A DNA stretch of 64,000 bases from Alphaproteobacteria bacterium (GCA_965221115.1 CBDCRU010000002.1:452045-516044); one strand, 5' to 3'. Shown: positions 867 through 51,185, numbered from the stretch's first letter. The notes: generated by a model not told the origin, from the letters alone. Numbers and translations: made by a program.

Positions 867-1805
867 ATGACCGGGCTGAACGACAGGATTGCTGCGGGCG
901 ACATCATCGTCATCGACGGGGGGATGGGGACCGAGCTCGAGCGTCATGGTGTGCCCATGCACGCCCAGACGTGGGCGGGCGCGGCGTTGATCGAGTACCC
1001 CGACGCCGTGGTCGATGTGCATGCAGACTTCATCCGCGCAGGCGCGGAGGTCATCATCACCAACACGTTCGGCGCCTCACCCCACATGCTCCAGGCGATG
1101 GGCCATGGCGATGAGGCCGAGACGATCATCCGCGGTTCGGTCGATCTCGCCAGGCGTGCGCGCGACCGGGTCGGCCGCGATGTCGCCATCGCGGGATCGA
1201 TCTCGACCATGGCGGCCGGCGGAGATCTCGCGGATCCCGGCAACCGTCATTCCGATGACGAGATTGCCGACAGCCTGGGCCGCATGGCGCGAGCGCTTGC
1301 CGACGGCGGCTGCGACGTGATTGCTCTCGAGATGATGCAGGACACGGTTCGGGCACCCGTTGCCTTGCGCTGCGCTCAGGAAACGGGCCTGCCGGTCTGG
1401 CTTGGTCTGACGTGCGCACGGGAGAAGGACAGCGGCGATCTGGTCGCGTTCGACTTTCCCGACAACCGCTTTGCCGACATCCTGGCGGCGACGGTGCCGC
1501 TCGAACCGGACCTGGTATGCGTGATGCACAGCGATGTCGACGTGACGGGCGACGCCATCGATGCCGTAAAGGAGCACTGGAACGGGCCGCTCGGCGTCTA
1601 TCCCGAAGCGGGCTACTTCGAAATGCCGCACTGGCACTTCGTCGACGTGATTGCGCCCGATGCCCTTGTCGAGCGGGCCCGGACCTGGGCGAGCCAAGGC
1701 GCGACTGTTTTCGGAGGTTGCTGCGGTCTTGGCCCTGAGCACATTGCCGCCCTTGACGGCGCGCGGGAGAGTCTTGATGCAAGCCACGTCCGTCACCGGG
1801 GCTGA
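867..1805 (+). CDS. mmuM: homocysteine S-methyltransferase (MmuM/BHMT-like)
   Basis: 312-aa ORF. The N-terminus IIVIDGGMGTELERHG and the C-terminal GGCCGLGPEHI are the Hcy-binding family hallmarks. Confidence 0.7.
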   Translation: MTGLNDRIAAGDIIVIDGGMGTELERHGVPMHAQTWAGAALIEYPDAVVDVHADFIRAGAEVIITNTFGASPHMLQAMGHGDEAETIIRGSVDLARRARDRVGRDVAIAGSISTMAAGGDLADPGNRHSDDEIADSLGRMARALADGGCDVIALEMMQDTVRAPVALRCAQETGLPVWLGLTCAREKDSGDLVAFDFPDNRFADILAATVPLEPDLVCVMHSDVDVTGDAIDAVKEHWNGPLGVYPEAGYFEMPHWHFVDVIAPDALVERARTWASQGATVFGGCCGLGPEHIAALDGARESLDASHVRHRG

Positions 1806-1845
1806 CAGGAATATCACGTGTCTGGTGAACCGGATGTGGCCCGGG
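1434..1845 (+). repeat. second copy of a tandem duplication (about 90% nucleotide identity to 1..~415, including the 3' flank with ATCACGTGTCTGG)
   Basis: By-eye alignment of 1..415 against 1434..1845. Confidence 0.6.
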
Positions 1846-1900
1846 ACGCGGGTGACTTGGGTAGTGCCTCTGTTTCAAGTTAGCCTACCACCGACCTCCG

Positions 1901-2197
1901 ATGAGACCTGTGCTTCCCGCTAAGCATCGGAGGGTATCGGTGAACAGCGAAACGATGACGACGATCGAAGAGCTCGCCATAAGCGTTGGTGCGATTGTGG
2001 AGTGCCCAGTCTGCCATGAAAGCAACTTTCATGCTGGCGACGATTATGCAGAACGTATGACTTACGCTCGTGCCACCCAGGCTTTGAAGGATGAGGATCG
2101 AGGGCTCAGGGGCTTGCAGCGTGAGAAAGTGACTGGCTTCGTAAAGTCAGTGCTTGATCACGCGTCGTTCAAGTGCCCTAGGTGTGAGATCCACTGA
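1901..2197 (+). CDS. small zinc-ribbon protein (CPVC...CPRC); the likely start is the internal Met near 1955
   Basis: 98-aa ORF with two CxxC pairs. Local GC is lower than the flanks. Its stop overlaps the next ATG (TGATG). Confidence 0.4.
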   Translation: MRPVLPAKHRRVSVNSETMTTIEELAISVGAIVECPVCHESNFHAGDDYAERMTYARATQALKDEDRGLRGLQREKVTGFVKSVLDHASFKCPRCEIH

Positions 2198-2373
2198 TGC
2201 CCACTGGACCCAAGGGTCAGAAGCGCCCGCGCGACGTGATCGGCAACGCCGTCAAGGTCATGCGGATCGCGACCGGCGAGGAAGATGAAGAGTTCGAGGA
2301 TGATGGCAAGGACCCTGCCGCGAAGGCGCTGGGAGCGAGGGGTGGCAAGGCGTGCACGCCAAGAAACTGACCT
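2197..2373 (+). pseudogene. small Lys/Arg-rich protein, apparently frameshifted. The tail ...AKKLTLEQRSEIARKAVVRRWKRS continues in the +2 frame up to about 2436.
   Basis: Frame A ends ...GARGGKACTPRN*. The +2 frame immediately continues with a conserved-looking basic tail. Confidence 0.3.
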
Positions 2374-2477
2374 TAGAACAGCGCTCAGAGATCGCGCGAA
2401 AGGCCGTTGTCAGGCGCTGGAAAAGGAGCTGATTCCCAAGAATTGGTCGATGTGCTATGTCACGTTGACTTTGGGCG

Positions 2478-2566
2478 TGGCGGGGGCGGTGGGATTCGAA
2501 CCCACGAGACCTCGACAGTCCGGCGGTTTTAAAGACCGCTGCATTCGACCGCTCTGCCACGCCCCC
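2478..2566 (-). tRNA. Type II (long variable arm) Ser-like tRNA with anticodon 5'-UUA-3' (ochre-suppressor-like). CCA is encoded and the discriminator is G.
   Basis: Manual fold of the minus-strand sequence. 7-bp acceptor stem GGGGGCG/CGCCCCC. 3-bp D-stem with D-loop GAGCGGUCGAA. Anticodon stem GCGGU/ACCGC with loop CUUUAAA (U33, A37). 17-nt variable arm. T-arm GUGGG-UUCGAAU-CCCAC. Confidence 0.75.
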
Positions 2567-2658
2567 TTTTTCGCGCACGCTAGGCCGAGAAACAGAATCA
2601 GTCAAGCAAGTCGCGGTCTTGACTCCGTTACTCCTGTGGGTATGATCGTCTCACGACT

Positions 2659-3645
2659 GTGGAGACTATCATGACTGCATCTTCAAAGAAAACCCTTCGA
2701 AGCCCCTCGTATCCGAGCATGTCGTTGGAAGATGCAATAGGCGCTGTCAAGAAGATCGAGACGGTGTATCGGACGTCGCGCGTCGACAGGGGCGAGGCCG
2801 CCAAGCTGCTCAACTACAGCAGCTTGAGTGGCCCGGCGGCTAAAGCTCTGGCCGCCTTGGCCTCGTACGGCCTTGTTGAGCGAGCGGGAAAGGGGGAGGT
2901 TCGCGTAACCGAGAGGGCGAAAGCGATCCTTTATGCTGAATCTGACAAAGAACGCCGTGATGTCTTGAGGGATGCGGCACTAGAGCCTCCACTTTTTCGT
3001 GAGCTCAGGGACCGCTTTGAGGCAGCCATCGCGGCTGGCGTGCCCCTTCCGGAGAGTGGGGTCATCAGGCATTTGGAGCGGGAGAATTTCAACCCTAGTG
3101 CGGTGCGACCGGCGGCGCGGGCCTTTCTCAAGACCATAGAATTCCTAGCATCCGTGGGAGCAAGCGAGAGTAATGGCAATGAGCCATCGGACGATGTTGT
3201 ATCCCCGTCAACGGACACTGAGACGGCGACCGTGACCTACGGAGGCGCGCAAGTTGGCGACTATGTTCAGTGGGAATCCGGAGGCGACCTTCGCCTTCCT
3301 GAGCCCATGCGCGTCCGAGCCATACATGACGATGGCGAGTGGGTCTTCATTGACGGCCACAGAGCGGGGATTCCGATGAGCGAGGTGATTGTTCAAGAAC
3401 GCGAACCAGATACCTCTCCTCCAATACTGCCTCTAGAAGTGGGCACTGGCGACGCACCTATCAGCCAATCTGGTGAGCGCGAACAACTTGAGTACAAGCT
3501 GAGTGACACGACGCGCGTTCGGATCTCTGTGACAGGTGAGATTGGAACAAGAGAGCTGGGGCGATTGATTCGCTTGCTCCAAACCCAGAGGGACATTCTG
3601 AAGGACGAGGAGGAAGAGGAAGAAATACATGAACATTATACTTGA
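2659..3645 (+). CDS. hypothetical protein (328 aa, acidic Glu-rich C-terminus)
   Basis: Long ORF in a lower-GC islet. I recognise no motif. Confidence 0.5.
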   Translation: METIMTASSKKTLRSPSYPSMSLEDAIGAVKKIETVYRTSRVDRGEAAKLLNYSSLSGPAAKALAALASYGLVERAGKGEVRVTERAKAILYAESDKERRDVLRDAALEPPLFRELRDRFEAAIAAGVPLPESGVIRHLERENFNPSAVRPAARAFLKTIEFLASVGASESNGNEPSDDVVSPSTDTETATVTYGGAQVGDYVQWESGGDLRLPEPMRVRAIHDDGEWVFIDGHRAGIPMSEVIVQEREPDTSPPILPLEVGTGDAPISQSGEREQLEYKLSDTTRVRISVTGEIGTRELGRLIRLLQTQRDILKDEEEEEEIHEHYT

Positions 3646-3739
3646 CGTTAAGCATTAAGGTTCATTTATTTGGGGCATTAACAAACTGCCCCTAAAGACC
3701 CGCGCCCTGATCCTGAACATACTCTGCTAAGGCCAGTCC

Positions 3740-4549
3740 ATGCGGGCGACCGCACGGCTGGCCGATGTGAGTTTCAACACCGTTGCCAAACTGCTGATCG
3801 ATGCGGGGAAGGTCTGCGCCGATCTGCACGACGAACTGGTGCAGGGAGTCACGGCCAGCTGCATCCAGTGCGACGAAATCTGGTCGTTCACCTGCGCCAA
3901 ACAGAAGAACGTACCGAACGCCAAGACCGTTCCTGCGGAGGCGGGTGACACTTGGATCTGAACCGCTCTGGACAGCGACAGCAAGCCGAACGTGTCATGG
4001 CTGATAGGTGGTCGCGACGGCGAATATGCGATTGCCTTCATGAACGATCTGTGGTCCCGGCTGGTAAACCGCGTCCAACTCACCACGGACGGCCACAAGC
4101 CGTACCTGGAAGCCCTGGAAGGGGCATTCGGCGGGGGTGTGGACTGCGCTCAGCTCATCACGCTGTACGACGAGGCGCCAGACGCTGAGAAGCGAAACAG
4201 CCCACCGACCCGCATCGAAACTCGCAAGTGCCGTATCGAAGGGAAGCCGGATCGCCAGCACGTCTCAACTTGCCATGTTGAACGCCGCAATCTGAGTATG
4301 TGGATGCACATGCGGCGCTTCACCCGGCTGAACAATGCGTTCTCCAAGAAATTTGAGATTCACATGGTTGCGCTCTACACCCTCTGGTACAACTTCATCC
4401 GCATTCACGAGACGCTTCGCGTTACCCCGGCCATGGAAGCTGGGCTCACAGACACTTTGTGGGACATGGACGACTTGGTGCGGATCATGGATCAGCGTGC
4501 CCCCAAGCCCGGTCCGCGCGGCCCCTACAAAAGGCGCAATTCAAACTGA
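3740..4549 (+). pseudogene. DDE transposase of an IS element, N-terminally truncated and interrupted by an in-frame TGA
   Basis: ORFs 3740..3961 and 3992..4549 share one frame, separated by a TGA at 3959..3961 (DTWI*TALDSDSK, where related transposases have Trp). Motifs CDEIWSF, LTTDGHKPY and ERRNLSMWMHMRRFTRLNNAFSKK. There is no in-frame start upstream of the HTH segment. Confidence 0.6.
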
Positions 4550-4623
4550 CCCGCTACCGGGCCTTGACATCGGCGGCATCGCAAACCATACAGTACCATA
4601 CTGGTCCTGATTGGTAGGTCTTC

Positions 4624-5064
4624 ATGATCCGATTGTCCCGCATGACCGACTACGGTGTCGTCGTCATGACCTACATGGCGTGGCAGGGAAGCGAAACGCG
4701 CTCCGCGCACCAGGTGGCCACGGCCACCGGTCTGCCGGAAGCCACGGCCGGCAAGCTCCTCAAGCTCTTCGCCCGCGCCGGCCTCCTGAAGAGCCGGCGT
4801 GGCGCCCATGGCGGATACGCCCTGACCTCGAGCCCGGAAGAGATTTCGCTTGCCCGTGTCGTCGAGGCTGTCGAGGGTCCGATCGCCCTTACCCTGTGCG
4901 TCGATGACCACCCGGGTCACTGCGACGTCGAATCGCTCTGCCCCATGCGCGGGGGCTGGAACCAGATCAACACCGCCCTGCGCGACGCCTTCGAGGGCGT
5001 CTCCCTTGCCGCGATGACCGCACCCGTCATCCCCCTTGCGGGGCTTCAGCAGATGGAGGCCTGA
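4624..5064 (+). CDS. Rrf2-family transcriptional regulator (IscR/RirA-like) upstream of the suf operon
   Basis: N-terminal wHTH. Cys cluster CVDDHPGHCDVESLCP typical of Fe-S-sensing Rrf2 proteins. Sits immediately 5' of sufB. Confidence 0.8.
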   Translation: MIRLSRMTDYGVVVMTYMAWQGSETRSAHQVATATGLPEATAGKLLKLFARAGLLKSRRGAHGGYALTSSPEEISLARVVEAVEGPIALTLCVDDHPGHCDVESLCPMRGGWNQINTALRDAFEGVSLAAMTAPVIPLAGLQQMEA

Positions 5065-5067
5065 CCG

Positions 5068-6528
5068 ATGGCCATCGTCCAGGAAACCATCGATACCGTC
5101 CACGAGGCCACCGGCGCCTACAAGCACGGCTTTGTCACCGAGATCGAGACCGAACGGGCGCCCGAGGGGCTCTCGGAGGACACCATCCGCTTCATCTCGG
5201 CCAAGAAGGAGGAGCCCGACTGGCTTCTCGCGTGGCGCCTCGAGGCCTTCCGCCACTGGCTCACCATGAAGGAGCCGGTGTGGGCGAAGGTCGGCTATGC
5301 GCCGATCGACTACCAGGCGAGTTCCTACTACGCGGCGCCGAAGTCGGCCTCCGACGGGCCGCAGAGTCTCGACGAGGTCGATCCCGAACTCCTCGAGACC
5401 TATGCCAAGCTCGGTATCCCGCTCAAGGAACAGGAGGTCCTATCTGGGGTGCGCAACGTTGCCGTCGACGCCGTCTTCGACAGCGTCTCGGTGGCGACGA
5501 CCTTCCGCGAGCGCCTGGAGAAGGACGGCATCCTCTTCTGCTCGATCTCGGATGCCGTGAAGGAACACCCGGACCTCGTCCGCAAGTACCTGGGTTCCGT
5601 GGTGCCCGTCACCGACAACTTCTTTGCCACGCTCAATTCGGCGGTCTTCACCGACGGGTCGTTCTGCTACATCCCGCCCGGCACGCGCTGCCCGATGGAG
5701 CTTTCCACCTATTTCCGCATCAACGCCTCCCAGACGGGCCAGTTCGAGCGCACCCTGGTGATCGCCGACAAGGGGAGCTACGTCAGCTACCTGGAAGGCT
5801 GTACCGCGCCGCAGAGAGACGAGAACCAGCTGCACGCCGCCGTGGTCGAACTGGTGGCGCTTGACGATGCCGAGATCAAGTACTCGACCGTCCAGAACTG
5901 GTACCCCGGCGACGCGGAGGGCCAGGGCGGCATCTATAACTTCGTCACCAAGCGGGGGCTGTGCGAGAAGCGCGCCAGGATCTCGTGGACCCAGGTGGAA
6001 ACCGGATCCGCCATCACCTGGAAGTACCCCAGCTGCGTCCTCAAGGGTGACGACAGCGTCGGCGAGTTCTACTCCGTCGCCATCACCAACAATCGCCAGC
6101 AGGCCGATACCGGAACCAAGATGCTCCATGTCGGCAAGAACACCAGGAGCAGGGTCATCGCCAAGGGCGTCTCCGCCGGCCATTCGCAGAGCACCTACCG
6201 CGGCCGCATCCGCGTCAACCCCATGGCCCATGGCGCCCGGAACTACACCCAGTGCGATTCGCTGCTGATCGGCGACGAGTGCGCCGCCCACACCGTTCCC
6301 TATATCGAGGCGCGCAACCAGAGCGCCCAGGTCGAGCACGAGGCCACCACATCGAAGGTGTCGGAGGACCAGATCTTCTACTGCCGCCAGCGCGGCATCC
6401 CGGAAGAGGAAGCCCTCACCCTGATCATCAACGGCTTCTGCCGCGAGGTGCTCCAGGAACTGCCGATGGAGTTCGCCGTGGAAGCCCAGAAGCTCGTCGG
6501 CATCAGCCTCGAAGGCAGCGTGGGATGA
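5068..6528 (+). CDS. sufB: Fe-S cluster assembly protein SufB
   Basis: 486 aa. Strongly conserved SufB sequence. Its stop overlaps the sufC start (ATGA). Confidence 0.95.
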
Positions 6529-7301
6529 CGATGGAGAAGAACGCCGCCATGACCCTGCTTTCCATCAAGGACCTCCGCGTTGCCGTGGACGGAAAGGAGA
6601 TCCTCAAGGGAATCAACCTCTCCGTCGACTCAGGCGAGGTCCATGCCATCATGGGCCCCAACGGGTCGGGCAAGTCGACGCTTTCCCACGTCCTCGCCGG
6701 CCGTGACGGCTACGAGGTGACCGAAGGCCAGGTTCTCTACAAGGGAGAGGATCTCCTGGAGATGGAGCCCGAGGAGAGGGCCCAGTCGGGGCTCTTCCTC
6801 GCCTTCCAGTATCCCGTGGAGATTCCGGGCGTGCCCACCGTCAGCTTTCTCAAGCACGCCATGAACTCCGTGCGCAAGGCAAAGGGAGAGAGCCCGCTCG
6901 ATGCCTTCGAGTTCAAGAAGATCATGGACGCCCGGCTGGAGGATCTCAGGATCGACAACTCCATGGTGCGCCGGCCGCTCAACGCCGGGTTCTCCGGCGG
7001 CGAGAAGAAGCGCATGGAGATTCTCCAGATGGCGTTGCTGGAACCTGAGCTCACCATCCTCGATGAGACCGATTCCGGTCTCGACATCGATGCCCTCAAG
7101 GTGGTGGCCGACGGCGTCAACGCCATGCGCTCGCCGGATCGCGCCACGCTGGTCATCACCCACTACCAGCGCCTGTTGAACCACATCATCCCTGATCGCG
7201 TGCACGTCCTTGCCGGAGGCCGGATCGTCAGGAGCGGAGATCCGTCGCTCGCCCTCAAGCTCGAGGAGAGCGGATACGGCGACCTGGTGACGGCGGCCTG
7301 A
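6525..7301 (+). CDS. sufC: Fe-S cluster assembly ATPase SufC
   Basis: Walker [10 protein letters not shown], signature FSGGEKKR, Walker [11 protein letters not shown]. The real start MTMEKN overlaps the sufB stop. ORF-track 6252..7301 is an upstream extension in the same frame. Confidence 0.93.
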
Positions 7302-19600: not shown

Positions 19601-20235
19601 TCGGCCCCAGCGGCGCCGGCAAGACAACCATGGCCCACCTCCTGATGCGCTTCTGGGACTGCGACGAGGGCCGCATCACCCTCGACGGCGACGACATCAA
19701 GGACTACCGGCTCGATGACCTGAGATCACACACGGCCCTGGTCGCCCAGGACACCTTCCTCTTCAACGACACGCTCAAGGCCAACATCCTCATCGCCCGC
19801 CCCGACGCCAGCGACGATGACCTCAAAGACGCAATCGCCAACGCCTCCCTCGAGGACGTCGTGGCAAGTCTCAGGGACGGTCTCGACACCCGTCTCGGAG
19901 AGCGCGGCGCCCGCCTATCCGGCGGCCAGCGCCAGCGCGTCGCCATCGCCCGCGCCTTCCTCAAGGACGCCCCGATCCTCATTCTCGACGAGGCGACAAG
20001 CCATCTCGATGCCGTCAACGAGATGGCGGTCCGCCGCGCCCTCACCAGGCTCATGACCGACCGCACCACCCTCGTCATCGCCCACCGCCTCTCCACCATC
20101 CGCAATGCTGACATCATCGTCGCCATGGAGAACGGTCGCATCGTCGAGCAGGGAAGCCACGACGACCTCGCCTCTGGCGACGGCCTCTACTCTCGCCTCG
20201 TGAGACACCAGATGGCCACCGCCCGCGCTGCCTGA
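16639..20235 (+). CDS. fused ABC exporter, TMD-NBD-TMD-NBD (CydDC-like thiol/glutathione exporter type)
   Basis: 1198 aa. Two NBDs with Walker A GPSGAGKS/T, signatures LSGGQRQRIAIARA and LSGGQRQRVAIARA, and Walker B ILVLDEA/ILILDEA. Each NBD is preceded by a six-helix TMD. Confidence 0.85.
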   Translation: MYFDRRLWAFTEGVRGRMAFSVIVGLAAACVGVARLALLGWLIAMVFEGRPFADLIVPIAIVGGVMVARGLLEYVRVMVAHETAARVQIAIRKRIYDKAVILGPAWFGQQRTGDVVLSVVDGVEQLETYFGEFLPTLLIAIVTPVAIFAFVAFLDLPVAAVLVTGAVLALVLPMAFHRLDYQASINRSRAYGEFGAEFLDAVQGLATLKAFGQSTARAIALAAKAKALAFGTLWVTAVNSLGRGITDASIAIAAAAALGYGAFRVEAGLMELSTLLIVLMMGIELFRPLRDMRTQLHTGMLGQSATEAIFRVLDASPLVHEPATPTPTSNDDTISEGLAFEDVTFTYPGEADTTHENLSFSLQKGESVGVVGPSGAGKSSIVRLLLRFWDPEKGAITIGGRDIRTMTTDDHRRQIAVVNQDTYLFHGTVEDNLKFGKPDATEDEMEEACRLANAHDFISTLPSGYQTVVGERGIRLSGGQRQRIAIARAVLRDAPILVLDEALSAVDAENEAVIQQALFRLMQDRTTLILAHRLSSVIRADRILVLDDGKVVEEGPHDDLMERRGVYWTLMHEQASAPAARSDDFIAPDEVVSADRDRDMAARAAAEAEPTHGILRAEGLGWAGAAEVLLSFVSSERLRLFLTFIFGVSRVVSFIGVGVFSALVVARIANGEDWSGLLVWLAIAAPLAGILHWLESWFAHDMAFRLLARMRIRLFDKIDSLAPAYLLRRRTGDLSAMATQDIETIESFYAHTVAPAFVAVLTPAIVIGVLVSFGWPMAVALVPFLAIVALSPVMLRGRLDRLGSQAREALGELNAFTADSIQGLGEILAFRQIRERRNNFITIASAVYQARLPFFRDLTVQMAILEVATGLGGLAIIVTGAAMVTSGNLDGSLLPFFTLLAMASFLPVSEIAHVGRQLADTLGAARRLHAVDREPVTIADGPGINTTRTSGGAAITLEHASYTYPGRIEPAVSDVDIAIPAGSTVALVGPSGAGKTTMAHLLMRFWDCDEGRITLDGDDIKDYRLDDLRSHTALVAQDTFLFNDTLKANILIARPDASDDDLKDAIANASLEDVVASLRDGLDTRLGERGARLSGGQRQRVAIARAFLKDAPILILDEATSHLDAVNEMAVRRALTRLMTDRTTLVIAHRLSTIRNADIIVAMENGRIVEQGSHDDLASGDGLYSRLVRHQMATARAA

Positions 20236-20793
20236 TAACCCCGTCAACCTCGGCGGATGGCGTCTGACAAAAAGGGTCCGGTTCAAAACAACGTGCTTCA
20301 ACAGTATCCAGGATGGTTTCATTCAGACCGGTAGTTTGATGCGACCAACTTCTTTCGAGAGCGACCTTCCCGGAAGCGCAACCGCTTACCCACTTCTTCA
20401 GCGAAAATCGGATTCAGATGTTAGTTGCAGTCCTCAAGTTTGTGTGTCGTTTCTCCGACTGAGCGCCAGTCTGCGGCTGGGGTCCATCTCTGCACATAGT
20501 GAAGCATGTGAAGCACAGGTCTTCACTGCTCATGGTTTCCTCTATTGCCTCCTTCTGGGCCATGTGTTCCCGGCTGGCACGAACGATGTCTTATCTCGCA
20601 GGGACAACCACTCCATCTCTATCCATCGGCCGACTGTTACGGGCAGACATCGGACGATGAAGGACGGAGAAGCAAAGCAGTATGACGGAACTCAGACAGT
20701 CTAGACGTAATGCGAACGACTTGACAAAGAGATAGCAACGATATATGTTGTGCGCAACACTCTATATTTGGATCCACGAGGAGAAGAAGAACA

Positions 20794-21486
20794 ATGACAA
20801 ACCGATTCAACGAAATGTCGGACTCCAAGACATGGAACATCCTTGTCCGCGCCGCGAGGCATGCGCTGGAGGAAAATGGCCTGTCACCCTCACGCATGCC
20901 TGGTCGCGGAAGATCGAACATATGGGAAATCGAGGAAGAGGGCCGCCGCAAGAAGGTGTCCATCCGGACCACAAAGAACAGGTGGTTCGCCTTTCCGCCT
21001 GTGCATGGAGGCGCCGAATGGAAGACGCTGGACAAGGTGGAGATTGTGGTGGTCGCGGCTGTCGATGATCGTGAATTCCCACAGAGTGTCGAAGTGTACC
21101 GGTTCGACGCCGATGAGGTCCGGAAGCGGTTCGACGCGTCATACGAGGCGCGCATCGAAGCGGGTCACATCGTCAGAGAGAATTTCGGCATGTGGGTGAA
21201 CCTCGACGTCGATGATCGTGAGCTTCCGGTGTGCGTCGGGGCGGGACTTGCAAACGAACATGCCCCTATCGCCGTTTACCAGCTTGAGGATGTGATCAAG
21301 GAGAGTAGCACGGAGAGAGTCGAGGTCGCGGCCGGCGGGGAGGAAGGAGGCGATAACGAGAGCGGTCCCTTCAGTGCGGCACCCGACACAATCGCGGACG
21401 TTATGGAGTGGGCGCGGAAACGTATCGCGACGATTTCCGGAATGCGCTTGGAAGCAGTGAAGTTGGATTGCCGCCTAGAGACGTGA
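20794..21486 (+). CDS. hypothetical protein (230 aa), first gene inside the accessory island
   Basis: ORF with a plausible start. No motif recognised. Confidence 0.4.
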   Translation: MTNRFNEMSDSKTWNILVRAARHALEENGLSPSRMPGRGRSNIWEIEEEGRRKKVSIRTTKNRWFAFPPVHGGAEWKTLDKVEIVVVAAVDDREFPQSVEVYRFDADEVRKRFDASYEARIEAGHIVRENFGMWVNLDVDDRELPVCVGAGLANEHAPIAVYQLEDVIKESSTERVEVAAGGEEGGDNESGPFSAAPDTIADVMEWARKRIATISGMRLEAVKLDCRLET

Positions 21487-22251
21487 GATGAGGCGGTAGA
21501 GAGGGGTAAGACTGTTCGCAGACCACACCGTCGACGACCCCCGGCGCGCATGTAGGAACGGGTCAGATGGCCAAACGGCACTGGTGCGACGTCGCGGCGG
21601 AGTCGCCCGTTCAAGCAAAGACCAAGTCAGTAGAGTCGTGGCCTGTGGACTGCTCGCTCCGGCGCAGGGACCTCGCGGTGGTCCACAGAAAGAGACAGCG
21701 TTTGCGTTTGGAGAAGACGACTCGGGCAGCAAATCAGCCGCGGTTCATAGGCGGAAGCCAGAAGCCGGCGTTGAGAGCATGTTTTCTGCCACCACTCAAC
21801 GGTTCATCGTGGCCGCAACTGGAGTCAGGTTGAGCAGGTCCGACGCGAAGGGCTTTGGAGGGCGAAAGGCCATGTCTGCTCATGCTTCGTGCGCCACAAG
21901 TTTGACTAGCGTGATACCGGGCTCGACAAATACGAACAGCAGTGTGACGTTCTATTCGTTTTGTTTGTCCCTGTCGAATGGCGGCTCGACCGTCACAGTT
22001 GAAGTGGCCTCGACCCGATGGCTGATCCTCAGCCTTAGTCGACCGGGTCCGGACTCGGGAGGGGTACAGTTGGCGTTGGTGCAACGAAGGGCTCAAGGGG
22101 TGCCGACCGAGACGTCAGTCCGCAAGCGGTAGGACCGCTGGAAGGACAGATCCGGGGGAATCCGGTCGATCTTGCAGTTTCAAGTGAATTCTCCTTCAGG
22201 AATGGAAATTCGGAGAACAAGTCTGACGGGCAGTAGTTAGGGAGCAGTGAA

Positions 22252-22794
22252 TTGACAAACATCGCGTGCCTTGGTTGGGGCTCACTGATCTGGGATCCTC
22301 GGGGCCTGCCTGTCCGGCGAGGCTGGTTCGATGATGGCCCACTGGTTCCTGTAGAATTCGCGCGGCTATCCCAAGATGGGCGGATCACCGTAGTCGTGGT
22401 GGATTCGGCTCGACCGCTGCGCTCTTTGTGGGCGTTGATGGACGGGGAAGACCTGCAGGAGGCGAGAGTACGCCTCCAGGAACGCGAGGGTGTGAGTAAT
22501 CGGGAATACATAGGGAGCTGGACGCGTGGCGATGGCGACTCCCCTTCTCTGCAGGGTCTCGCCGAATGGGCGTTCACCCGGAATATTGATGCGGTCGTTT
22601 GGACGGCGTTGCCGCCCAAGTTCGACAAGAGAAATGGGAGGCTGCCCACGGAAGATGAAGTGATCGCGTATCTCCAAGCGCTCAGGGGCGCAAAACGCGA
22701 CGAGGCCGAACGCTACATTCGGCTCGCGCCGCGCCAGATCGATACTGCGTATCGACGTCGAATCGAAGCGGAGCTCAATTGGGCGCCGGAATGA
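22252..22794 (+). CDS. gamma-glutamyl cyclotransferase-like (GGCT/ChaC/AIG2-fold) protein
   Basis: The N-terminal CLGWGSLIWDPRG resembles the ChaC/GGCT start [YF]GYGSL[IM]W. 180 aa. Confidence 0.4.
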   Translation: MTNIACLGWGSLIWDPRGLPVRRGWFDDGPLVPVEFARLSQDGRITVVVVDSARPLRSLWALMDGEDLQEARVRLQEREGVSNREYIGSWTRGDGDSPSLQGLAEWAFTRNIDAVVWTALPPKFDKRNGRLPTEDEVIAYLQALRGAKRDEAERYIRLAPRQIDTAYRRRIEAELNWAPE

Positions 22795-23159
22795 GTCTTG
22801 AGATCATTTGCAACACGCAACGTGGAGATTCTCGAAACGTGTCTCGATGCGAGTGCCCAAATGAGGGAGTGGAACTGAAGATAGTGGGACTCGGAGAACA
22901 TCGATGAACTTCCGATCCAGGGGATGGTTCGGATGCACCGCGCTCGTGACCACCGCCTTTTGGCGAGTAACCGGAGCGGTGACAGTCGAAGATTCGAGAA
23001 GTGTTGGCCGTTGTCGGCCAATAGGTCAGAGCGTGGATGCTGTCAAACTGAAACATGGACCATACTCAAGGCTTCGGACGGTGGCAGTGACTAACAGTTG
23101 GAGTCATGAAATGGCCAAGCGAAGAAGGGTTGACCTGACCAAGGGCATGCGGGGAAAAG

Positions 23160-23834
23160 TTGATGCCAAGAAGAGCAGATCTCAGACGATTCTATAGTTT
23201 GGTGCGAAGGCTCGCGCCCAACATGGACGACAGGCACCTGCTTGGCCAACTTGAAAGTAGGGACTGCCCAAACCGAGGCGTTTACTTCTTCTTCGAGGAT
23301 GGCGAGCGGAGATCAGGCAGCGGAAATGGCGATCGCGTGGTTCGAGTGGGATCCCATGCACTGAACGCCGGAGAGACCACAACCTTGTGGGACAGGCTGT
23401 ACGATCACCGAGGTGCCGATTCACCACGTCAACGACAAAGCGGGTCGGTATTTCGAAATTGCGTTGGGAATGCCATCTGCCGTCGCAATCGTACTTTGGG
23501 GCCCGTGGATTGGCCGCACGACTCGAATCACGGAGATGTCGTTCGAATAGAAAGACTGATAAACCGCCATATGTGGCAGATGCCCGTCATTTTCATTCCA
23601 GTAAACCACCGCGTCCACCGCAGGTACATTGAGCGTAACGCAGTCGCGCTGCTGAGCGAGTATGGAGAAGAGAATCCTATAGATTGTCAATCCGGACGCT
23701 GGCTCGGTCGGCGGTGTAGCACGGAAAAGGTGAGGGAGTCCGGTCTCTGGCAAAGCGAATATGTCAACCACTATCACCGACCAGAATTTCTCGACCTGCT
23801 AGAAATGTATGTGGACCGGACCCTATGTCGCTAG
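23160..23834 (+). CDS. GIY-YIG-like nuclease-domain protein
   Basis: The N-terminal region RGVYFFFEDGERRSGSGNGDRVVRVGSHAL...LWDRLYDH matches GIY...YIG...R..H spacing. 224 aa. Confidence 0.4.
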   Translation: MMPRRADLRRFYSLVRRLAPNMDDRHLLGQLESRDCPNRGVYFFFEDGERRSGSGNGDRVVRVGSHALNAGETTTLWDRLYDHRGADSPRQRQSGSVFRNCVGNAICRRNRTLGPVDWPHDSNHGDVVRIERLINRHMWQMPVIFIPVNHRVHRRYIERNAVALLSEYGEENPIDCQSGRWLGRRCSTEKVRESGLWQSEYVNHYHRPEFLDLLEMYVDRTLCR

Positions 23835-23864
23835 CAAGTAGAACTGTCCGGTTATCGTAGCACA

Positions 23865-24893
23865 TCAATTGGCTGCTTCTGTTGGGGTTGCTGGCCCTGT
23901 GGGGAAGTGGTCAGGCGCGGAGCGGCTGTCCACTTGTCCACAGGGCGCCTTCGGGTCGCGTCGTAGCGGGTCACGCGGCCTTCCGGGTGTGAGTGTCGAT
24001 GGGGACTGCGTTGCTCCGGTACCGGGCGAGGCATCGTGGTCCATGGAAGACGGCCAGGGTGCCGTCGGGGTACTCGTGGATCCGGACGTGCGCCTTGACG
24101 TAATGGGGGCGATCCGGGCCAGCGGGGAGCTGCAGGATCCGTCTGCCGTAGCGCACGGTGTTGTCGCGGCCGACGATGCGCTGTGCGTGGAGGCACAGGA
24201 TGTCGTCGATCTGGTCGGGCCGGAGCAGCGGCACGAAGGCTGAGTCTTCAAGCTCGGGCGGGATCGCGAAGTGGCGGTTGTGGTCGGGCAAGTAGGTGTC
24301 CTCGATGAAGCGGTTGGCGGCCTCGATGGTGGTGATACCGGCGAGATCGAGTTCCGTGACCAAGCGGTCCTGGAGGGTGCCGAAGACGCGCTCCGAGCAA
24401 CCCCTCGCCTCGGGAGAGTAGGCGGCGATGTGCTCGATGCCGAGCTGATGGAGCGCCCTTCCGACCTGGGTGCGCCGGTCCCTGTCCACCTTGTCGCCGG
24501 CTTCGGGGGTGTGGAAGTAGTGGCTGCCGCGGTCGGTGTAGAGCGCGCCTGGCAGGCCCTGGGCCGTGAACACCTGCTTGAGCGCCCGGAAGGTGGACGC
24601 GGTGCCTCCCTCGCCGAAACCTTGCCGAGCCGGCGATCGAACAGTCCCTCCAAGCCTTCCTCCTCGTAACGCTGCCGGTAGTGCCGGAAGTTGCGCTCCG
24701 ACATCCCCAGCAACTCCGCCGCATCCATCGCCGAGAGACGCTTCTCCTCAAAGCGTTCCAGCTCATCCCGAAACTTCTCCATCCTGCGTTCCTGAAGCCA
24801 TGCCGTCCGGTTCATCAGGGCGCCTCCCACCGGGACACCTAACCGGACAACTCGTGTGCTACCTAAACTGGACAGATCATGTGCTACCGACAC
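23865..24893 (-). pseudogene. IS481/ISNCY-like DDE (rve) transposase, frameshifted and internally deleted
   Basis: The HTH N-terminus frame (...GLFDRRLGKVSAREAP) switches to the catalytic frame (ALYTDRGSHYF...YSPEARGCSERVFGTLQDRL) near 24600. About 100 residues including the first catalytic Asp region appear to be missing. Confidence 0.65.
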
Positions 24894-24944: not shown

Positions 24945-25145
24945 ATGGCAAGACCTCGAGGAAAACAGAAGACTGAGCGGGTGACCATCAACCTAGATCC
25001 TCGCTCCTATGAGATTTTGCTCAACGTGGCCAAACGCAATCAGGCACCCGTCGCACAAGTCGCACGGAGAGCGGTGGTGGAATTTCTTCGGCGAGAAGAA
25101 CCATCCATGGATCAATGGACGCTACCGCTGGAACCACAGGCATGA
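24945..25145 (+). CDS. ribbon-helix-helix (CopG/Arc-like) DNA-binding protein, candidate controller of the methyltransferase operon
   Basis: 66 aa. TINLDPRSYEILLNVAKRN...VARRAVVEFL is a typical RHH. Its stop overlaps the M1 start (ATGA). Confidence 0.6.
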   Translation: MARPRGKQKTERVTINLDPRSYEILLNVAKRNQAPVAQVARRAVVEFLRREEPSMDQWTLPLEPQA

Positions 25146-26365
25146 GTCCATGGGAGCGGGTTGGTGCGTCCGCGGCCTTGGAGCAACTCAACATGGACTT
25201 CGGACCGGTGACGGAAGACTTCGAGTCCGAAACTGCCCGCGACTTCGATATGTCCCCGGAGGAAGTACTCCAAACCGTAGATTGGGACTTTCCCGAACGT
25301 AGCGTCCAGGAGCCATTGGAAGCCATCCATCCCTATCCCGCTAGGTTCATCTCTGAAATTCCGCGCTCTCTGCTGGACGCACTGCCGTTACCATCGGGAG
25401 CCATTGTCCTCGACCCATTCTGCGGCAGCGGAACCACGCTAGTCGAATGTCAGCGCCGTGGAATTCCTGCGATCGGCATCGATCTCAATCCGATCGCCTG
25501 CCTCATGAGCCGTGTCAAAACTACACCAATTGCTGCAGGTCTTCGGGCTCACGCACTTGCCGTAGCCGAACGTGCGAGGACGGGGCCTGCAGTCGCCATT
25601 CCCGACATTCCCAACCTGGATCACTGGTTCCAGCCAGACATTCAAGACCAGTTGGCAAGACTCCTGGATGCCATCGATTCCTTGCCTGTTCCCGAACAAG
25701 ACAGCTTGAAGCTTGCCCTGTCGAGCATCATTGTGCGCGTGTCGAATCAGGAGAGTGATACGCGGTACGCGGCGGTCTCGAAGGACGTAGGCCCGGATGC
25801 TGTGCGGTCCTTGTTTCTGAGGGCGACAGAACGCTTAGAAACGGCGTTGCGCGCACGGCGCTATCGACTGAGTTCCGTGAGTGTGATCCAAGGGGATACT
25901 CTCAGTGTAGAACCTTCAAAAATTCGGGCTCCCGTGGGACTCGTCATCACATCGCCACCGTACCCAAACGCGTACGAGTACTGGCTGTATCACAAGTACC
26001 GCATGTGGTGGTTGGGATTCGACGCGCTGAATGTCAAAGAGCGAGAAATCGGTGCTCGGGCTCATTTTTTCAAGAAGAACCACCATACGCCGGAAGATTT
26101 TTCCCGCCAGATGCGCCAAACATTCGCACTGTTGGAATGCATTGTGATGCCGGGTGGGTATGTCTGTTTCGTTGTAGGGCGTTCGCAGATCCACGGGCGA
26201 ATTGTCGACAACGCGAAAATCATCTCCGAGGCTGGCGCGACGTGTGGGTTCAGCGCCTATTTCGCCACCGACCGCCTCCTTGCGGCCCATCGTAAGTCGT
26301 TCAATCTCTCTCACGCAAACATCAAGAAGGAGACGATCCTAATCCTGAGGAAGGAACCCTTCTGA
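25142..26365 (+). CDS. DNA amino-methyltransferase M1 (N6-adenine or N4-cytosine)
   Basis: Motif I VLDPFCGSGTT precedes motif IV SPPYPNAY. Translationally coupled on both sides. Confidence 0.8.
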   Translation: MSPWERVGASAALEQLNMDFGPVTEDFESETARDFDMSPEEVLQTVDWDFPERSVQEPLEAIHPYPARFISEIPRSLLDALPLPSGAIVLDPFCGSGTTLVECQRRGIPAIGIDLNPIACLMSRVKTTPIAAGLRAHALAVAERARTGPAVAIPDIPNLDHWFQPDIQDQLARLLDAIDSLPVPEQDSLKLALSSIIVRVSNQESDTRYAAVSKDVGPDAVRSLFLRATERLETALRARRYRLSSVSVIQGDTLSVEPSKIRAPVGLVITSPPYPNAYEYWLYHKYRMWWLGFDALNVKEREIGARAHFFKKNHHTPEDFSRQMRQTFALLECIVMPGGYVCFVVGRSQIHGRIVDNAKIISEAGATCGFSAYFATDRLLAAHRKSFNLSHANIKKETILILRKEPF

Positions 26366-27852
26366 TGCGTCTAACCTGGCATGGATACGCCTACTACCCG
26401 TACGAGCGGGAACTTGCGACCAGAGAGATAGCGGCCTTGCTCGGAAACGGCAACATGCAGACGGTCAGCGACGGCATTGAACTACGCGGAACAGTTTCCG
26501 CTGGCCCGGCCGAACGTCTCACTTACTTCTCCGGACGGATCAACGGTAGCGGTTTCGAGCCGACCATCCAAGCAAAGCTGGAACAAGCGGCACGCATTGG
26601 CGAGAAGAAACAGGCAACCCGCTATTCGGTCCATGGCTTGCACGAATACAAAGGCAAGTTCAATCCACAAGTCGTACGGGCGCTGCTGAACATCTTCCAG
26701 GTCGAACCAGGGCAACGCGTCATGGACCCGTTTTGCGGAAGCGGGACGACACTTGTGGAGTGTGCACACTTGGGGGCGTTCGCAGTCGGCATGGACATCA
26801 ACCCGCTGGCTACCCTCATCGCACGCGCCAAGCTGAACGCGCTTTGCACTCCGGTCGGGAAGCTCGAGAGAGAATTCGCGCGTCTCTCGCGATGGGCGCT
26901 GCAGCCCACGCTCACGAACGACGATGTACGTCGCGACGGCCGGATCGAATATCTAGAACGGTGGTTCAATGTCGGGATACTCGAGCAAATCGAGCTAGTG
27001 CGTTCCGCCATCGAGCGCGTCGATTCCGTGAGCGCCCGGCTCGTTTTTCTGACAATAGCCAGCAATTTGCTGCGCGACTACTCCCAACAGGATCCTAACG
27101 ACCTGCGTACGCGACGGCGCAAGTCCCCGCTTCCAGAGCTTCCGTTCACAGTCGCATTCCTCAAGGCCGTCCCCCCATTCCTGAAACGAGTCCAAGCGGC
27201 CCAGGATGTGCTCGGCTCCAATCTCCCTCGAGGACACGTGATACAGCGTGATACCACGGCAATTGCGATGGAGGAGGCAGGAGCGCCCTTCGACGCAGCA
27301 GTCAGCAGCCCCCCGTATGCGATGGCCCTCCCGTACATCGACACCCAGCGATTGTCTCTGGTTTGGCTGGGCCTGTGTCTACCCGATCAACTGGCAGACC
27401 TGGAAGCGCGGATGATCGGCAGCCGTGAAATGCGTGGCCAAGCACACCGCGTGTTGCTGCGGCGGCTAAAGGACAATGCCGACAACCTGCCTAGCTCCGA
27501 ATTCGACATTTGCCTCAAGCTACACCGGACTCTTGGCGAGAACGACGGCTTTCGCCGCAAAGCCGTGCCGCTCTTGCTGTACCGCTACTTCGCATCCATG
27601 CAGGCGAGTTTCCGAAGACTTCGAACCATGATGAAACCAGGGGCTCCTTACGGCCTGATTGTGGGGCACAATCACACGACAATCGGCGGTGTCCGGCACG
27701 AACTCAATACCCCTATGCACTTGGCCAGACTGGCAGGTGCAGAAGGGTGGAACATAGACGAACTGATCCCCCTGCAGACGTATCGGCGATACGGATACCA
27801 CGCGAGTAACGCGGTCTCCGCGGAAAGCCTGGTCATTCTGCGTAACGCGTAA
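26365..27852 (+). CDS. DNA amino-methyltransferase M2 (paralogue of M1)
   Basis: Motif I MDPFCGSGTT, motif IV SSPPYAMALPY. Same architecture as M1. Its start overlaps the M1 stop (TGATG). Confidence 0.8.
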   Translation: MRLTWHGYAYYPYERELATREIAALLGNGNMQTVSDGIELRGTVSAGPAERLTYFSGRINGSGFEPTIQAKLEQAARIGEKKQATRYSVHGLHEYKGKFNPQVVRALLNIFQVEPGQRVMDPFCGSGTTLVECAHLGAFAVGMDINPLATLIARAKLNALCTPVGKLEREFARLSRWALQPTLTNDDVRRDGRIEYLERWFNVGILEQIELVRSAIERVDSVSARLVFLTIASNLLRDYSQQDPNDLRTRRRKSPLPELPFTVAFLKAVPPFLKRVQAAQDVLGSNLPRGHVIQRDTTAIAMEEAGAPFDAAVSSPPYAMALPYIDTQRLSLVWLGLCLPDQLADLEARMIGSREMRGQAHRVLLRRLKDNADNLPSSEFDICLKLHRTLGENDGFRRKAVPLLLYRYFASMQASFRRLRTMMKPGAPYGLIVGHNHTTIGGVRHELNTPMHLARLAGAEGWNIDELIPLQTYRRYGYHASNAVSAESLVILRNA

Positions 27853-28024
27853 CAATTTACAGACTGCATTCCAGCGTCGTGTAGCGGCCGACTAGCTTGG
27901 TACCGGCGGCAAGTGACCCGGGAAAAGCCAGCATGCGCCTCGACCGACCAATTCCTTGCGTTGTTGGGCGGCATTGAACACATGTTGCAACGCTTCAAAC
28001 AAGTGCGACGCTTCGTCAACAAAC

Positions 28025-30048: not shown

Positions 30049-31244
30049 TTGAAGGACGGGTCAGCTGGAGTCGGCCATTCCAAGATCATCGGGTCACCCG
30101 TCGTTGGAATGTGAGACCGATGTTGTTCCGCGAAATCACGGATGGCCGTCACCGGGCGCTTGGGGAGCACCATCCGGACATCCCCATGCCCGGTCTCTCC
30201 GGGGGCGTGGCCGTACACCATCACATTAGTTTCGACGAGCTGTTCACAATGGAGCCCGCGGTCGTCGGCATAGCGCAAGAGCATCGGAAACTCGCAGCGC
30301 GGACGTTCGAACCTACCTTGAAAGATCCCGAAACGCATGGTTGAGAGTGTCGCCACCGGGATGCTCACATTGGCGGTCCCGCCCCGTCCTTCGAAGTGCC
30401 GCGCGCTATCGCGGTTGAGCAGGGCAATCAACCCGATCGCACCACCCGGAAGCGGCGAGCCTGTAAGGGCGTTTGGGCCACGCGTCGGATCGGTCGCATT
30501 GGGATCGAGGAGGACATACGATGGAGCTATCTGTGGGTTTGGAACTGACACCATTCCACCCGTCCCGACCGGAGGGAATCGGACTAGGGGAACAAGTCCA
30601 ACCAACAGTCCAGCGGTAGCGCCTTGCGCGACAACGGGTGGACGGATTCGTGACGATCGAGTGCGCCTCAAGATGCCGACCGCTGCCAATGCGGCAATAT
30701 CGCTGGGTTTGCTGACGATATGGGCGCCGCCTGTAGATTCATCAAACCAAACATCGACAGCGGACGCGATCTCAGCAAGGATGCGGCCCGAATCTCCTTT
30801 GGCCGTGTCAAGGATGATTCCAGCTTCAACGTTCAGGCCGGATACACCCGAAGATGTTAAGTTCGCAGAGCCCACATATGCGGTTTGTGTGCCATCGGTC
30901 CGAACCGCGTGATAGACCTTCGGGTGATACAAGCCGGTCGAATAACTGACGACGGCTATGTTTGCGTCCCTGCGCGGCCAGCCGATTAGGTCCGCCAGAT
31001 TTTCCAAATCCGGCTGTGCCGTGTCGCCTCCATTGGATCCCAAGACGCAACGGATTGCCATGTCGTGTTCGGTGAGGCTTTGCAGGAGCGGCATCAACGG
31101 AGCAAGCCCTTCGGAAGAGAAGTACCCTGATTGGAAGCGAAAGTAGGAAATGTCCTGGTCACACAAACTCTTTAGCCACGTACCCACGGCATGGGCGGGA
31201 TTCCTGCTGCCAGTATCAATGTACCACATCTCGGCTTCTCCCAA
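30049..31244 (-). pseudogene. PLD-family (HKD) nuclease, candidate restriction endonuclease, 3' end cut by the IS1634 insertion
   Basis: Single HKD motif LYHPKVYHAVRTDGTQTAYVGSANLTSSG about 100 residues from the N-terminus. The ORF reads straight into IR-R (...PADPSFK|LTRLPQL). Joining across the IS restores about 50 more codons ending near 27897. Confidence 0.55.
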
Positions 31245-31530
31245 TCACTGCTCCGGCGATATCTTAGAGCACGGCGTCAGTCCGAGATCATGACTTCTCC
31301 CGTGCGTTCGTACCATCCCTCGGCCCCAACCGGCGGAGATTGGGTTGCAGACACAGTACATTGCCACAACGCTTAAGATTGATGCCATTGAGCCAATCTG
31401 GCCGAATTCGCACCCTCTCGATCATCTCGGCTTCCAAGCCAAGGCGATTGACCTTAAGCAAGTCGCAAAAGTGATTACCATTGATTGGGGCGATCGCAAT
31501 CGCGCCAGTTCGGGCAGCTTCGTCAGAAGC

Positions 31531-31760
31531 CTAGCTGTTGAAGTGATCCGTCATGATGAACAGGCCCTTATCTGCGCCTCCCTGTAAGGCACCGCCAAAC
31601 TCTCGGATTTCTTTGGCACCAACGCTCCCACTCCACCGCTTGCACCAGAAACAGATCCGAAACGAAACAAGGTTCACACGAAGCACGCCAACACTATCGA
31701 TTCCTCCATCGCCTGACTTTCCGTGCACACATCGACTCCGGCGAATCCCCCTTCGCGCCA
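31531..31760 (-). pseudogene. Mrr-family restriction endonuclease catalytic-domain remnant
   Basis: The C-terminal GDGGIDSVGVLRVNLVSFRICFWCKRWSGSVGAKEIREFGGALQGGADKGLFIMTDHF matches the Mrr_cat core. The N-terminal part is absent. Confidence 0.5.
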
Positions 31761-51118: not shown

Positions 51119-51185
51119 GCGTGAAGGCTGTTCCCGTGGAAATCATCAGAGCCGAGATCACGGCAAAACTCACAGTGGAGCCTGC

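Follow-up and report, generated by a model that had tools for sequence, protein, structure and literature searches.

A serine-type tRNA gene with a UUA anticodon inside an IS1-family element of an alphaproteobacterium: a candidate mobile stop-codon suppressor

Background

In bacteria that use the standard code, natural nonsense-suppressor tRNAs are seldom met, and the usual view takes them for accidents by which nonsense mutations are rescued. The locus described here raises the question of what a tRNA gene with a stop-complementary anticodon is doing in an alphaproteobacterial chromosome, and whether it is such an accident. The gene lies near one end of a 64,000-nucleotide stretch of DNA from Alphaproteobacteria bacterium (GCA_965221115.1, CBDCRU010000002.1:452045-516044), which was analyzed over its full length and is referred to here as the window. 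The original prediction, made from the sequence alone, described a serine-type tRNA gene with anticodon UUA in a small accessory islet. Our analysis of the gene, its relatives and its carrier indicates that it is a real gene built on a tRNA-Ser(UGA) scaffold. We consider it probable, on comparative sequence evidence, that it encodes an active ochre/amber suppressor charged by seryl-tRNA synthetase (SerRS). The gene belongs to a mobile two-gene cassette, in which it is possibly regulated by its neighbor.

Results and discussion

The tRNA gene and its anticodon register

ARAGORN detected a single tRNA in the window, on the minus strand at 2478-2566, and classed it as tRNA-Stop with anticodon tta at position 35. 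On the same strand, positions 2481-2566 form a full-length match to the Rfam tRNA covariance model RF00005 (60.7 bits, E=1.2e-10, gathering score 29), spanning model positions 1-71. The anticodon loop, CUUUAAA, lies in the canonical register (C32, U33, U34, U35, A36, A37, A38), and ARAGORN and Infernal agree in placing UUA at 34-36. The register proposed in the original prediction was thus reproduced by both programs; no other triplet was placed at these positions, and the stems are whole rather than broken as in a pseudogene.

2478-2566, minus strand: Ser-type tRNA gene, type II, G73, CCA encoded, anticodon UUA (ARAGORN, Rfam, relatedness and covariation)

Reading of the sequence gives a canonical cloverleaf with the 7/5 arrangement of acceptor and T stems. 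The 7-bp acceptor stem (GGGGGCG/CGCCCCC) is followed by U8, a 3-bp D stem that includes C11:G24, a 5-bp anticodon stem, and a variable arm of about 16 nt with its own stem of 4-5 bp, as in type II tRNAs. On the 3' side are the T loop TTCGAAT, the discriminator G73 and an encoded CCA. The long-arm tRNA that had been folded by hand, with its 7-bp acceptor stem, 3-bp D stem, G73 and CCA, was confirmed in every structural detail. By minimum free energy the single sequence does not stand out (z=-0.99); this is usual for tRNAs and provides no argument against the call.

Scaffold identity and expected decoding

Among the matches listed from the annotated phage collection, the annotated full-length relatives of the window tRNA are all tRNA-Ser, at approximately 79-81% identity. 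Viral contigs were also scanned for the D-arm and anticodon-stem sequence of this scaffold without fixing the anticodon, and UGA was returned in 114 of 124 cases, the remainder being CUA (4), CGA (3), UUA (2) and ACU (1). A BLAST search of the tRNA against E. coli genomes returned no match and is uninformative. These comparisons bear out the predicted resemblance to tRNA-Ser(UGA), and the window tRNA represents this scaffold with U in place of G35, which yields UUA. It carries none of the serine anticodons (UGA, CGA, GGA, GCU) and, owing to UUA, is not an ordinary tRNA-Ser isoacceptor. Its anticodon loop is that of an ochre suppressor, with a stop-complementary triplet at 34-36, seven nucleotides, U33 and a purine at 37.

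In E. coli, SerRS reads the long variable arm, G73 and pairs of the acceptor and D stems and ignores the anticodon; its identity elements are G73, G2:C71 and C11:G24. Leucyl-tRNA synthetase (LeuRS) likewise ignores the anticodon. Because the anticodon is not a SerRS identity element, UUA is no bar to serine charging. G73, G2:C71 and C11:G24 are all present in the window tRNA and are invariant in an alignment of eight homologues. Two other identities were considered and rejected. An allo-tRNA requires an 8/4 or 9/3 acceptor branch, and the window tRNA has 7/5; tRNA-Sec requires the anticodon UCA, a 13-bp (8/5) branch and a long D stem, and the window tRNA has UUA, 7/5 and a D stem of 3 bp.

A recurrent cassette with a winged-helix partner

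Divergently from the tRNA gene runs an intact gene for a 328-amino-acid (aa) protein, p328, which is composed of an N-terminal MarR-like winged helix, a helical region, an SH3-like barrel and a long C-terminal helix and which belongs to a large unannotated family. The same arrangement was found in all eight loci examined that have a close p328 homologue (56-78% protein identity), with the divergent tRNA 92-111 nt upstream. The anticodon is CUA in six of these loci and UUA in two, the window and L535. Two further copies of the tRNA stand without the protein, one in L223 (UUA, approximately 92% identical) and one in L498 (UUA, truncated, beside a transposase fragment). The search for the same tRNA in other genomes that had been suggested returned relatives with CUA as well as UUA. 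Those relatives that carry names are Alphaproteobacteria. Homologue counts here, like the scan and cassette counts throughout, represent samples and not a census. The eight loci are as follows.

Window: UUA; inverted repeats present; transposase and second open reading frame (ORF2) decayed
L001: CUA; transposase intact; other genomic context
L529/L530: CUA; a single element found at two different sites of the same sample; its transposase has decayed in L529 and is intact in L530
L531/L532: CUA; intact; L532 is a short contig ending within the transposase
L533: CUA; inverted repeats retained, with a decayed transposase
L534: CUA; without insertion sequence (IS) parts; chromosomal, adjoining rpsM
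L535: UUA; without IS parts
L536: CUA; 294-aa transposase gene called; element inserted in a cobD gene

The region between the two genes of the window contains promoter-like sites for both, together with a candidate operator.

2659-3645, plus strand: p328, cassette partner of 328 aa, intact; start uncertain (GTG 2659, ATG 2671, or later)
2577-2605, minus strand: promoter-like site for the tRNA, found by eye, with -35 TTGACT (2605-2600), a 17-nt spacer and -10 TAGCGT (2582-2577)
2619-2646, plus strand: promoter-like site for the p328 gene, found by promoter scan, with TTGACT, 16 nt and TATGAT (10 of 12 matches)
2600-2624, no strand: candidate operator, in which the back-to-back -35 boxes form an inverted repeat (AGTCAA, 13 nt, TTGACT), conserved

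The -35 box of the tRNA is conserved in L001 and other cassette loci, and a counterpart of the inverted repeat, GTCAAG..CTTGAC or CAAGCAT..ATGCTTG, is present in eight of eight. A separate conserved CATAGCATG-like motif, which in the window belongs to the 3' flank at 2430-2477, follows the 3' end of the tRNA by approximately 25 nt at every cassette locus, L534 and L535 with no IS parts among them; it may be a cassette border or a regulatory site.

The recurrence of the cassette bears directly on whether the gene is simply an original or duplicated tRNA-Ser(UGA) gene of the host with a recent change of G35 to U, or else the tRNA integration site of an island. The scaffold differs from tRNA-Ser(UGA) by one anticodon base, and tRNA genes are common integration sites. 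Against this, the tRNA lies inside the inverted repeats of an IS and not at an island border, and the ten related loci (the eight cassettes, L223 and L498) occur in different contexts, all with nonsense anticodons and with diverged stems. The anticodon change is therefore old and inherited, and the homologous cassettes refute a host-gene origin to the point that we regard it as hardly tenable.

Signs of selection

When the eight tRNAs are aligned, standard pairs account for 99.0% of stem cells. Compensatory double changes affect five pairs in four helices; none of 500 shuffles reached the observed score, and slid controls gave 0-1. The stem of the variable arm is 100% paired across the eight homologues and includes one of the compensatory pairs. 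No sense anticodon occurs among the ten related tRNA loci, and C34 and U34 have been interchanged at least twice, since the two cassettes with UUA do not group as sisters in the partner-protein tree. The tRNA and the p328 gene are intact where the transposase has decayed (window, L529, L533) or is absent (L534, L535). Judged from these sequences, the cargo outlives its carrier in this lineage, and read-through of stop codons has the look of a mobile trait kept by selection, not of an accident.

The carrier insertion sequence

The tRNA sits in a stretch of approximately 57% GC (2-4 kb) within flanks of approximately 65% GC, between a homocysteine S-methyltransferase gene (867-1805) and an Rrf2 regulator with the suf operon (from 4624). 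Within this interval an element of 2,699 bp (1860-4558), present once in the window, is bounded by a left inverted repeat (IRL), GGTAGTGCCTCTGTTTCA, and a right inverted repeat (IRR), TCAAACTGACCCGCTACC. The accessory islet with an IS remnant had been correctly recognized and is borne out by its lower GC content, with the amendment that the tRNA lies within the IS and not beside it. The parts of the element are listed below.

1852-1859, no strand: left target-site duplication remnant GTGACTTG, matching the right flank GGGCCTTG at 6 of 8 positions
1860-1877, plus strand: IRL GGTAGTGCCTCTGTTTCA, with 3 mismatches to the consensus GGTAGTGTCTCAGTTTGA; aligns with the IRL of L001
1901-2197, plus strand: ORF1, 98 aa, with CxxC...CxxC motifs, in the same position as ORFs of 64-70 aa in L001, L529 and L533
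2197-2432, plus strand: pseudogene of the ORF2-like small basic protein, frameshifted relative to the intact 77-aa protein of L001
3640-3676, plus strand: transposase promoter/operator-like motif ACTTGACGTTAAGCAT...; the motif ATGCTTGAC..AGCAT is also found upstream of the transposase in nine other elements
3677-4549, plus strand: IS1-family DDE transposase pseudogene, 74% identical to the intact 293-aa protein of L001
4541-4558, minus strand: IRR TCAAACTGACCCGCTACC, containing the transposase stop TGA
4559-4566, no strand: right target-site duplication remnant GGGCCTTG, matching the left flank at 6 of 8 positions

Family searches with the 98-aa product of ORF1 matched no family. In frame 0, ORF2 stops at 2370; its conserved C-terminal segment AKKLTLEQRSEIARKAVVRRW is read in the +2 frame, which runs on to 2432. 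Relative to L001, the transposase has an ATG to ATT change at its start (3677-3679), TAA in place of Glu18 (3728-3730) and TGA in place of a Trp codon (3959-3961); the IS remnant in the window amounts to two ORFs in one reading frame. With these transposase lesions and the ORF2 frameshift, the carrier IS in the window is dead and not competent for transposition.

The state of the carrier is an argument for regarding the tRNA as a functionless relic, that is, the cargo of a dead IS which is unexpressed or negligibly active and is becoming a pseudogene. Four lesions disable the carrier, its target-site duplication has decayed, the -10 box of the tRNA is weak, a target gene for read-through was not found among the genes of the element and the host genes of the window, and degenerate or truncated copies of the tRNA exist at L359 and L498. 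The tRNA itself, however, kept all stems and universally conserved positions, and its 60.7 bits, while the transposase and ORF2 gained lesions. Intact cargo with a decayed or absent carrier recurs in L529, L533, L534 and L535, and the lineage shows compensatory changes and nonsense anticodons only. We consider a relic unlikely.

The boundaries of the element also settle most of the question of phage origin. The original prediction placed the gene among small phage-like ORFs and proposed that it was borne by a mobile element or a phage. The first part of this proposal stands, as the gene lies inside IS repeats. The second does not: the small ORFs are core and accessory genes of an IS1-family element, and there are no phage genes in the islet. 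A suppressor serving a stop-recoded phage or prophage would be consistent with the closest relative of the tRNA (L223, approximately 92% identical) and many copies of the IS being found on IMG/VR contigs, and with Ser-type CUA tRNAs being common on viral contigs. No phage genes lie in or near the islet, however, and the bounding repeats are of IS1 type and set between the chromosomal homocysteine methyltransferase gene and the suf operon. No intact gene of the element has an in-frame TAA or TAG, and the Ser-type CUA tRNAs of viral contigs (L127, L210, L231, L234) are not beside this transposase. A phage-borne suppressor is thus largely refuted by the IS boundaries and appears very improbable.

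Two features of the surroundings were observed in addition. Tandem paralogous 3' ends of homocysteine S-methyltransferase genes occur at 1-403 and 1434-1834 (86% nucleotide identity), the second stopping 26 bp before the IRL. Other low-GC patches lie at 20000-24000, 25000-28000, 30000-35000 and 48000-54000 (0.55-0.59, and 0.44 at 33-34 kb, against a background of approximately 0.65-0.68) and may be other acquired islands.

The IS family at large

The IS family was surveyed in 160 loci, 80 from metagenome and 80 from viral-collection contigs, anchored on the transposase only and not on tRNA content. Both inverted repeats, with consensus GGTAGTGTCTCAGTTTGA, were identified in 112 of the 160. The elements are 1.3-5.6 kb long (median 3.2 kb), and the 8-bp target-site duplications are perfect in 74 of the 108 distinct elements. 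Four intact relatives of the transposase score 28.7-39.3 bits against the Pfam family DDE_Tnp_IS1 (PF03400; cutoff 24.1), and plasmid-borne homologues are named "IS1 family transposase" in RefSeq. The NCBIfam IS1 equivalog score, 64.5, falls below its cutoff of 100, and the carrier is for this reason a divergent IS1 member. The core genes of the family are the transposase and the ORF2-like small basic protein (64 of 109 elements); the cargo is diverse and includes XRE-type regulators, HigB/HicB-like parts, an ATPase and a DNA methyltransferase. The element homologous to that of the window in L001 lies in a different genomic context, with 76% identity over 2.3 kb.

Several further observations concern the family. 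A conserved palindromic motif, ATGCTTGAC...AGCAT followed by a TATAAT-like box, is found directly upstream of the transposases in the window, L361, L402, L354, L393, L351, L291, L376, L395 and L375, and it resembles the palindrome between the tRNA and the p328 gene. The ORF2-like 77-aa gene (e.g. L001 7524-7757) ends in TAG or TAA in 61 of 69 suppressor-less elements and in TGA in the window, L001 and L361. A tRNA gene lies just outside the IRR in two elements (L344 5839-5926 and L396 4835-4931), which may reflect chance or target preference. Copies of the IS on plasmids of cultured Acidiphilium, Methylocapsa, Hoeflea and Mesorhizobium carry no tRNA, so that these yielded no cultivable host for the cassette; L006 (Acidiphilium multivorum plasmid NZ_CP041717.1), L526, L527 and L528 have XRE/HTH-type cargo without a tRNA, and the L526 element is near a Shedu nuclease gene and an AAA-ATPase/UvrD-helicase gene pair.

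Other tRNAs carried by the family

Eleven distinct elements of the 160-locus set hold a tRNA gene in the interval from the left repeat to the transposase, and both repeats were found in nine of them. In two of the 11, L361 and the L402 group, the tRNA has UUA on a Leu-type scaffold with A73, and the nearest annotated relatives are all tRNA-Leu. L361 is a minimal IS of 1,323 bp (inverted repeat, tRNA, transposase, inverted repeat) with a perfect target-site duplication. An anticodon-directed scan returned a 98-nt UUA tRNA in L061 (Pirellulales), which folds like the (9/3) allo-tRNA-UUA class and lies approximately 450 nt upstream of a transposase only 41% identical to that of L001; no inverted repeats were resolved for this element. 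A 2026 survey (PMC13092985) reported suppressor tRNAs in approximately 0.3% of standard-code bacterial genomes. As a rough comparison without a formal test, two UUA tRNAs among 11 IS-borne tRNAs looks like a large excess over this figure. As SerRS and LeuRS ignore the anticodon, serine, leucine and allo-like scaffolds with UUA are the pattern to be expected if charging and decoding matter.

In other elements of the family, the tRNAs between the left repeat and the transposase show odd pairs of anticodon and scaffold. ACU occurs twice and AGU once; GCU stands on a class-I scaffold, UGC on a Glu-like one, and GUA on a long-arm G73 scaffold with a second, weak tRNA behind it; a further odd tRNA is 95 nt long. 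These odd tRNAs are located at L291 3740-3816, L351 3814-3889, L395 3820-3894, L376 3798-3871 and L393 1147-1218, with further ones at L354 3726-3818 and 3822-3889 and at L320 4324-4418. Most of the odd-anticodon IS-borne tRNAs score 50-63 bits on the Rfam tRNA model. In L359, a degenerate tRNA of the window type with the same T arm (1228-1323) falls below the Rfam threshold and lies 58 nt outside the left repeat of a 5.6-kb member of the IS family (1381-6936). CUA tRNAs with long variable regions containing ..CTCTGAAG.. are numerous on viral contigs (L148, L154, L167, L169, L170, L173, L185, L186 and others) and are unrelated to the IS family.

The mismatched tRNAs raise a further alternative, in which the product is a tRNA-shaped RNA with a non-translational role and its anticodon serves recognition and not decoding. 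Such an RNA might be a cofactor or regulator for the IS or for p328, a decoy for an anticodon nuclease, or a toxin-like component. The unused or mismatched anticodons in the family (ACU, AGU, GCU on class-I, UGC on Glu-like) point this way, as do the toxin-antitoxin-like and defence-like genes among its cargo and the tight linkage of the tRNA to a protein of nucleic-acid-binding type. Mukai et al. proposed roles of this kind for some allo-tRNAs near transposon-related genes and toxin-antitoxin systems (PMC5389517). Everything that translation requires is conserved, however, namely the CCA end, the T loop, a long arm, U33, A36-A37-A38, G73 and C11:G24. UUA or CUA tRNAs on Ser, Leu and allo-Ser-like scaffolds would be expected only if charging and decoding matter, and the sole anticodon change in the lineage is between two nonsense anticodons. 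A non-translational role is, in our estimate, quite unlikely, slightly more so than a relic.

A more far-reaching version of the suppressor interpretation takes the tRNA and the winged-helix protein as a regulated read-through switch, a mobile cassette that its hosts retain and that would turn UAA and UAG conditionally into serine codons, for example under stress, during phage attack or for the expression of stop-interrupted genes elsewhere. It would also take IS1-family elements as general vehicles for code-altering tRNAs, covering Ser and Leu nonsense suppressors, perhaps allo-type tRNAs, and other mismatches of anticodon and scaffold. We put this forward tentatively and with more doubt than confidence.

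Predicted action and possible targets of read-through

If the window tRNA is the active suppressor that we consider probable, the following course of events may be proposed. The tRNA would be transcribed from its own promoter, back-to-back with the promoter of the divergent p328 gene, and p328 would regulate both genes, probably by binding the palindrome that the paired -35 boxes make up. According to the rules established for E. coli, host SerRS would charge the mature tRNA with serine independently of the anticodon, and the A36-A37-A38 loop would provide the substrate motif for i6A37 modification. The charged tRNA would be expected to compete with release factors at UAA and, more weakly through U34 wobble, at UAG, and the predicted outcome is insertion of serine with low-level read-through. 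The cassette travels as cargo of IS1-family elements and at times stands alone; in the window it is intact inside a dead carrier.

Stop-codon usage in the 32 confident ORFs of the window (TGA 23, TAG 7, TAA 2) is relevant to the cost of such a suppressor, which would be limited since TAA ends only 2 of the 32. In the window and L001, no intact gene of the element contains or ends in the codon of its own tRNA.

A number of observations weigh against an active suppressor. TAG ends approximately 22% of genes, so reading of UAG by wobble would be costly. No in-frame TAA or TAG was found in the intact element genes examined, nor was a host gene of the window found to be broken by TAA. Avoidance of the suppressed codon is mixed, as the window and L001 fit but cargo genes of L402 end in TAA and TAG; tRNA-less homologues of the p328 gene also end in TGA. 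The -10 box of the tRNA (TAGCGT) is weak, and the site falls below the threshold of the promoter scanner. Homologues of p328 at approximately 50-55% identity occur without a tRNA (Rhizobium, Roseovarius and L248 loci), and the protein is accordingly not dependent on the tRNA. The carrier being dead, the copy in the window could be drifting towards loss. Finally, the SerRS identity rules are carried over by analogy from E. coli to the host of the window.

Two arrangements linking the tRNA to the transposase were also considered and rejected. A transposase that needs its own suppressor is not indicated, as the window copy has a TGA and a lost start in addition to its TAA, and the intact transposases of L001, L061 and L179 have no internal stops; the transposase stop is usually a TGA inside the IRR. 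The tRNA as a co-transcribed leader of the transposase is not indicated either, as a promoter/operator motif lies between the two in nine elements and the tRNA of the window lineage is on the opposite strand.

Relation to known systems

Serine-inserting suppressors, allo-tRNA-UUA, phage suppressor tRNAs and insertion sequences with passenger genes are already known. The E. coli suppressors of the supD/serU type resemble the window tRNA in being type II tRNA-Ser with a single anticodon base change; they are charged by SerRS independently of the anticodon and insert serine at a stop codon, which is predicted for the window tRNA. They are, however, laboratory-selected point mutants of chromosomal genes, supD being an amber (CUA) suppressor, whereas the lineage of the window tRNA is natural, has UUA or CUA, and combines diverged co-varying stems with a winged-helix partner and IS1-family carriage.

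Phage suppressor tRNAs act on phage genes with many in-frame TAG or TGA codons, and recoding of TAA is not known to be typical of such phages. The carrier itself is akin to the single-ORF IS1 "transporter IS" with passenger genes, the ISMhu11-type group in ISfinder; it shares with such elements DDE_Tnp_IS1, GGTAGTG termini that fit GGnnnTG, 8-bp duplications and variable cargo.

Allo-tRNAs are natural bacterial long-arm G73 tRNAs in which anticodon and identity are mismatched, UUA included (PMC5389517, 2017). They are loosely associated with transposon-related genes and toxin-antitoxin systems, and an allo-tRNA whose UUA was swapped for CUA suppressed amber codons with serine in E. coli (PMC5389517). 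Allo-tRNAs differ from the window tRNA in their 8/4 or 9/3 arrangement; the window tRNA has 7/5 and, with 60.7 bits, lies above the threshold of the standard tRNA model. Allo-tRNAs are not known to be tied to one specific IS family or to a conserved partner protein, and the window lineage has both. The suppressor tRNAs of recoded phages (bioRxiv 10.1101/2021.08.26.457843 and papers on crAss-like phages) are similar in being borne by mobile elements in standard-code bacteria, but the window has no phage, no in-frame stop in intact genes of the element, and an insertion sequence as carrier. In the literature searched (subscription journals and ISfinder/TnPedia lay outside its scope), we found no description of tRNA cargo, nonsense-suppressor tRNAs in particular, on IS1 or IS1595 elements, of a conserved cassette of suppressor tRNA and winged-helix gene with IS1-family carriage, or of recurrent capture of nonsense-anticodon tRNAs of several identities by one IS family.

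Conclusions

If the tRNA is active, stop-codon read-through would be a trait acquired horizontally in a cassette of approximately 1.3 kb. This would bear on the origin of stop-codon reassignments, on the tolerance of suppression in GC-rich, TAA-poor genomes and on the cargo of insertion sequences. The suppressor tRNA and its putative regulator would in addition represent compact natural parts for genetic-code engineering in Alphaproteobacteria. Should IS1-family elements prove to be general vehicles for code-altering tRNAs, they would offer stop-codon reassignment a natural first step that spreads horizontally.

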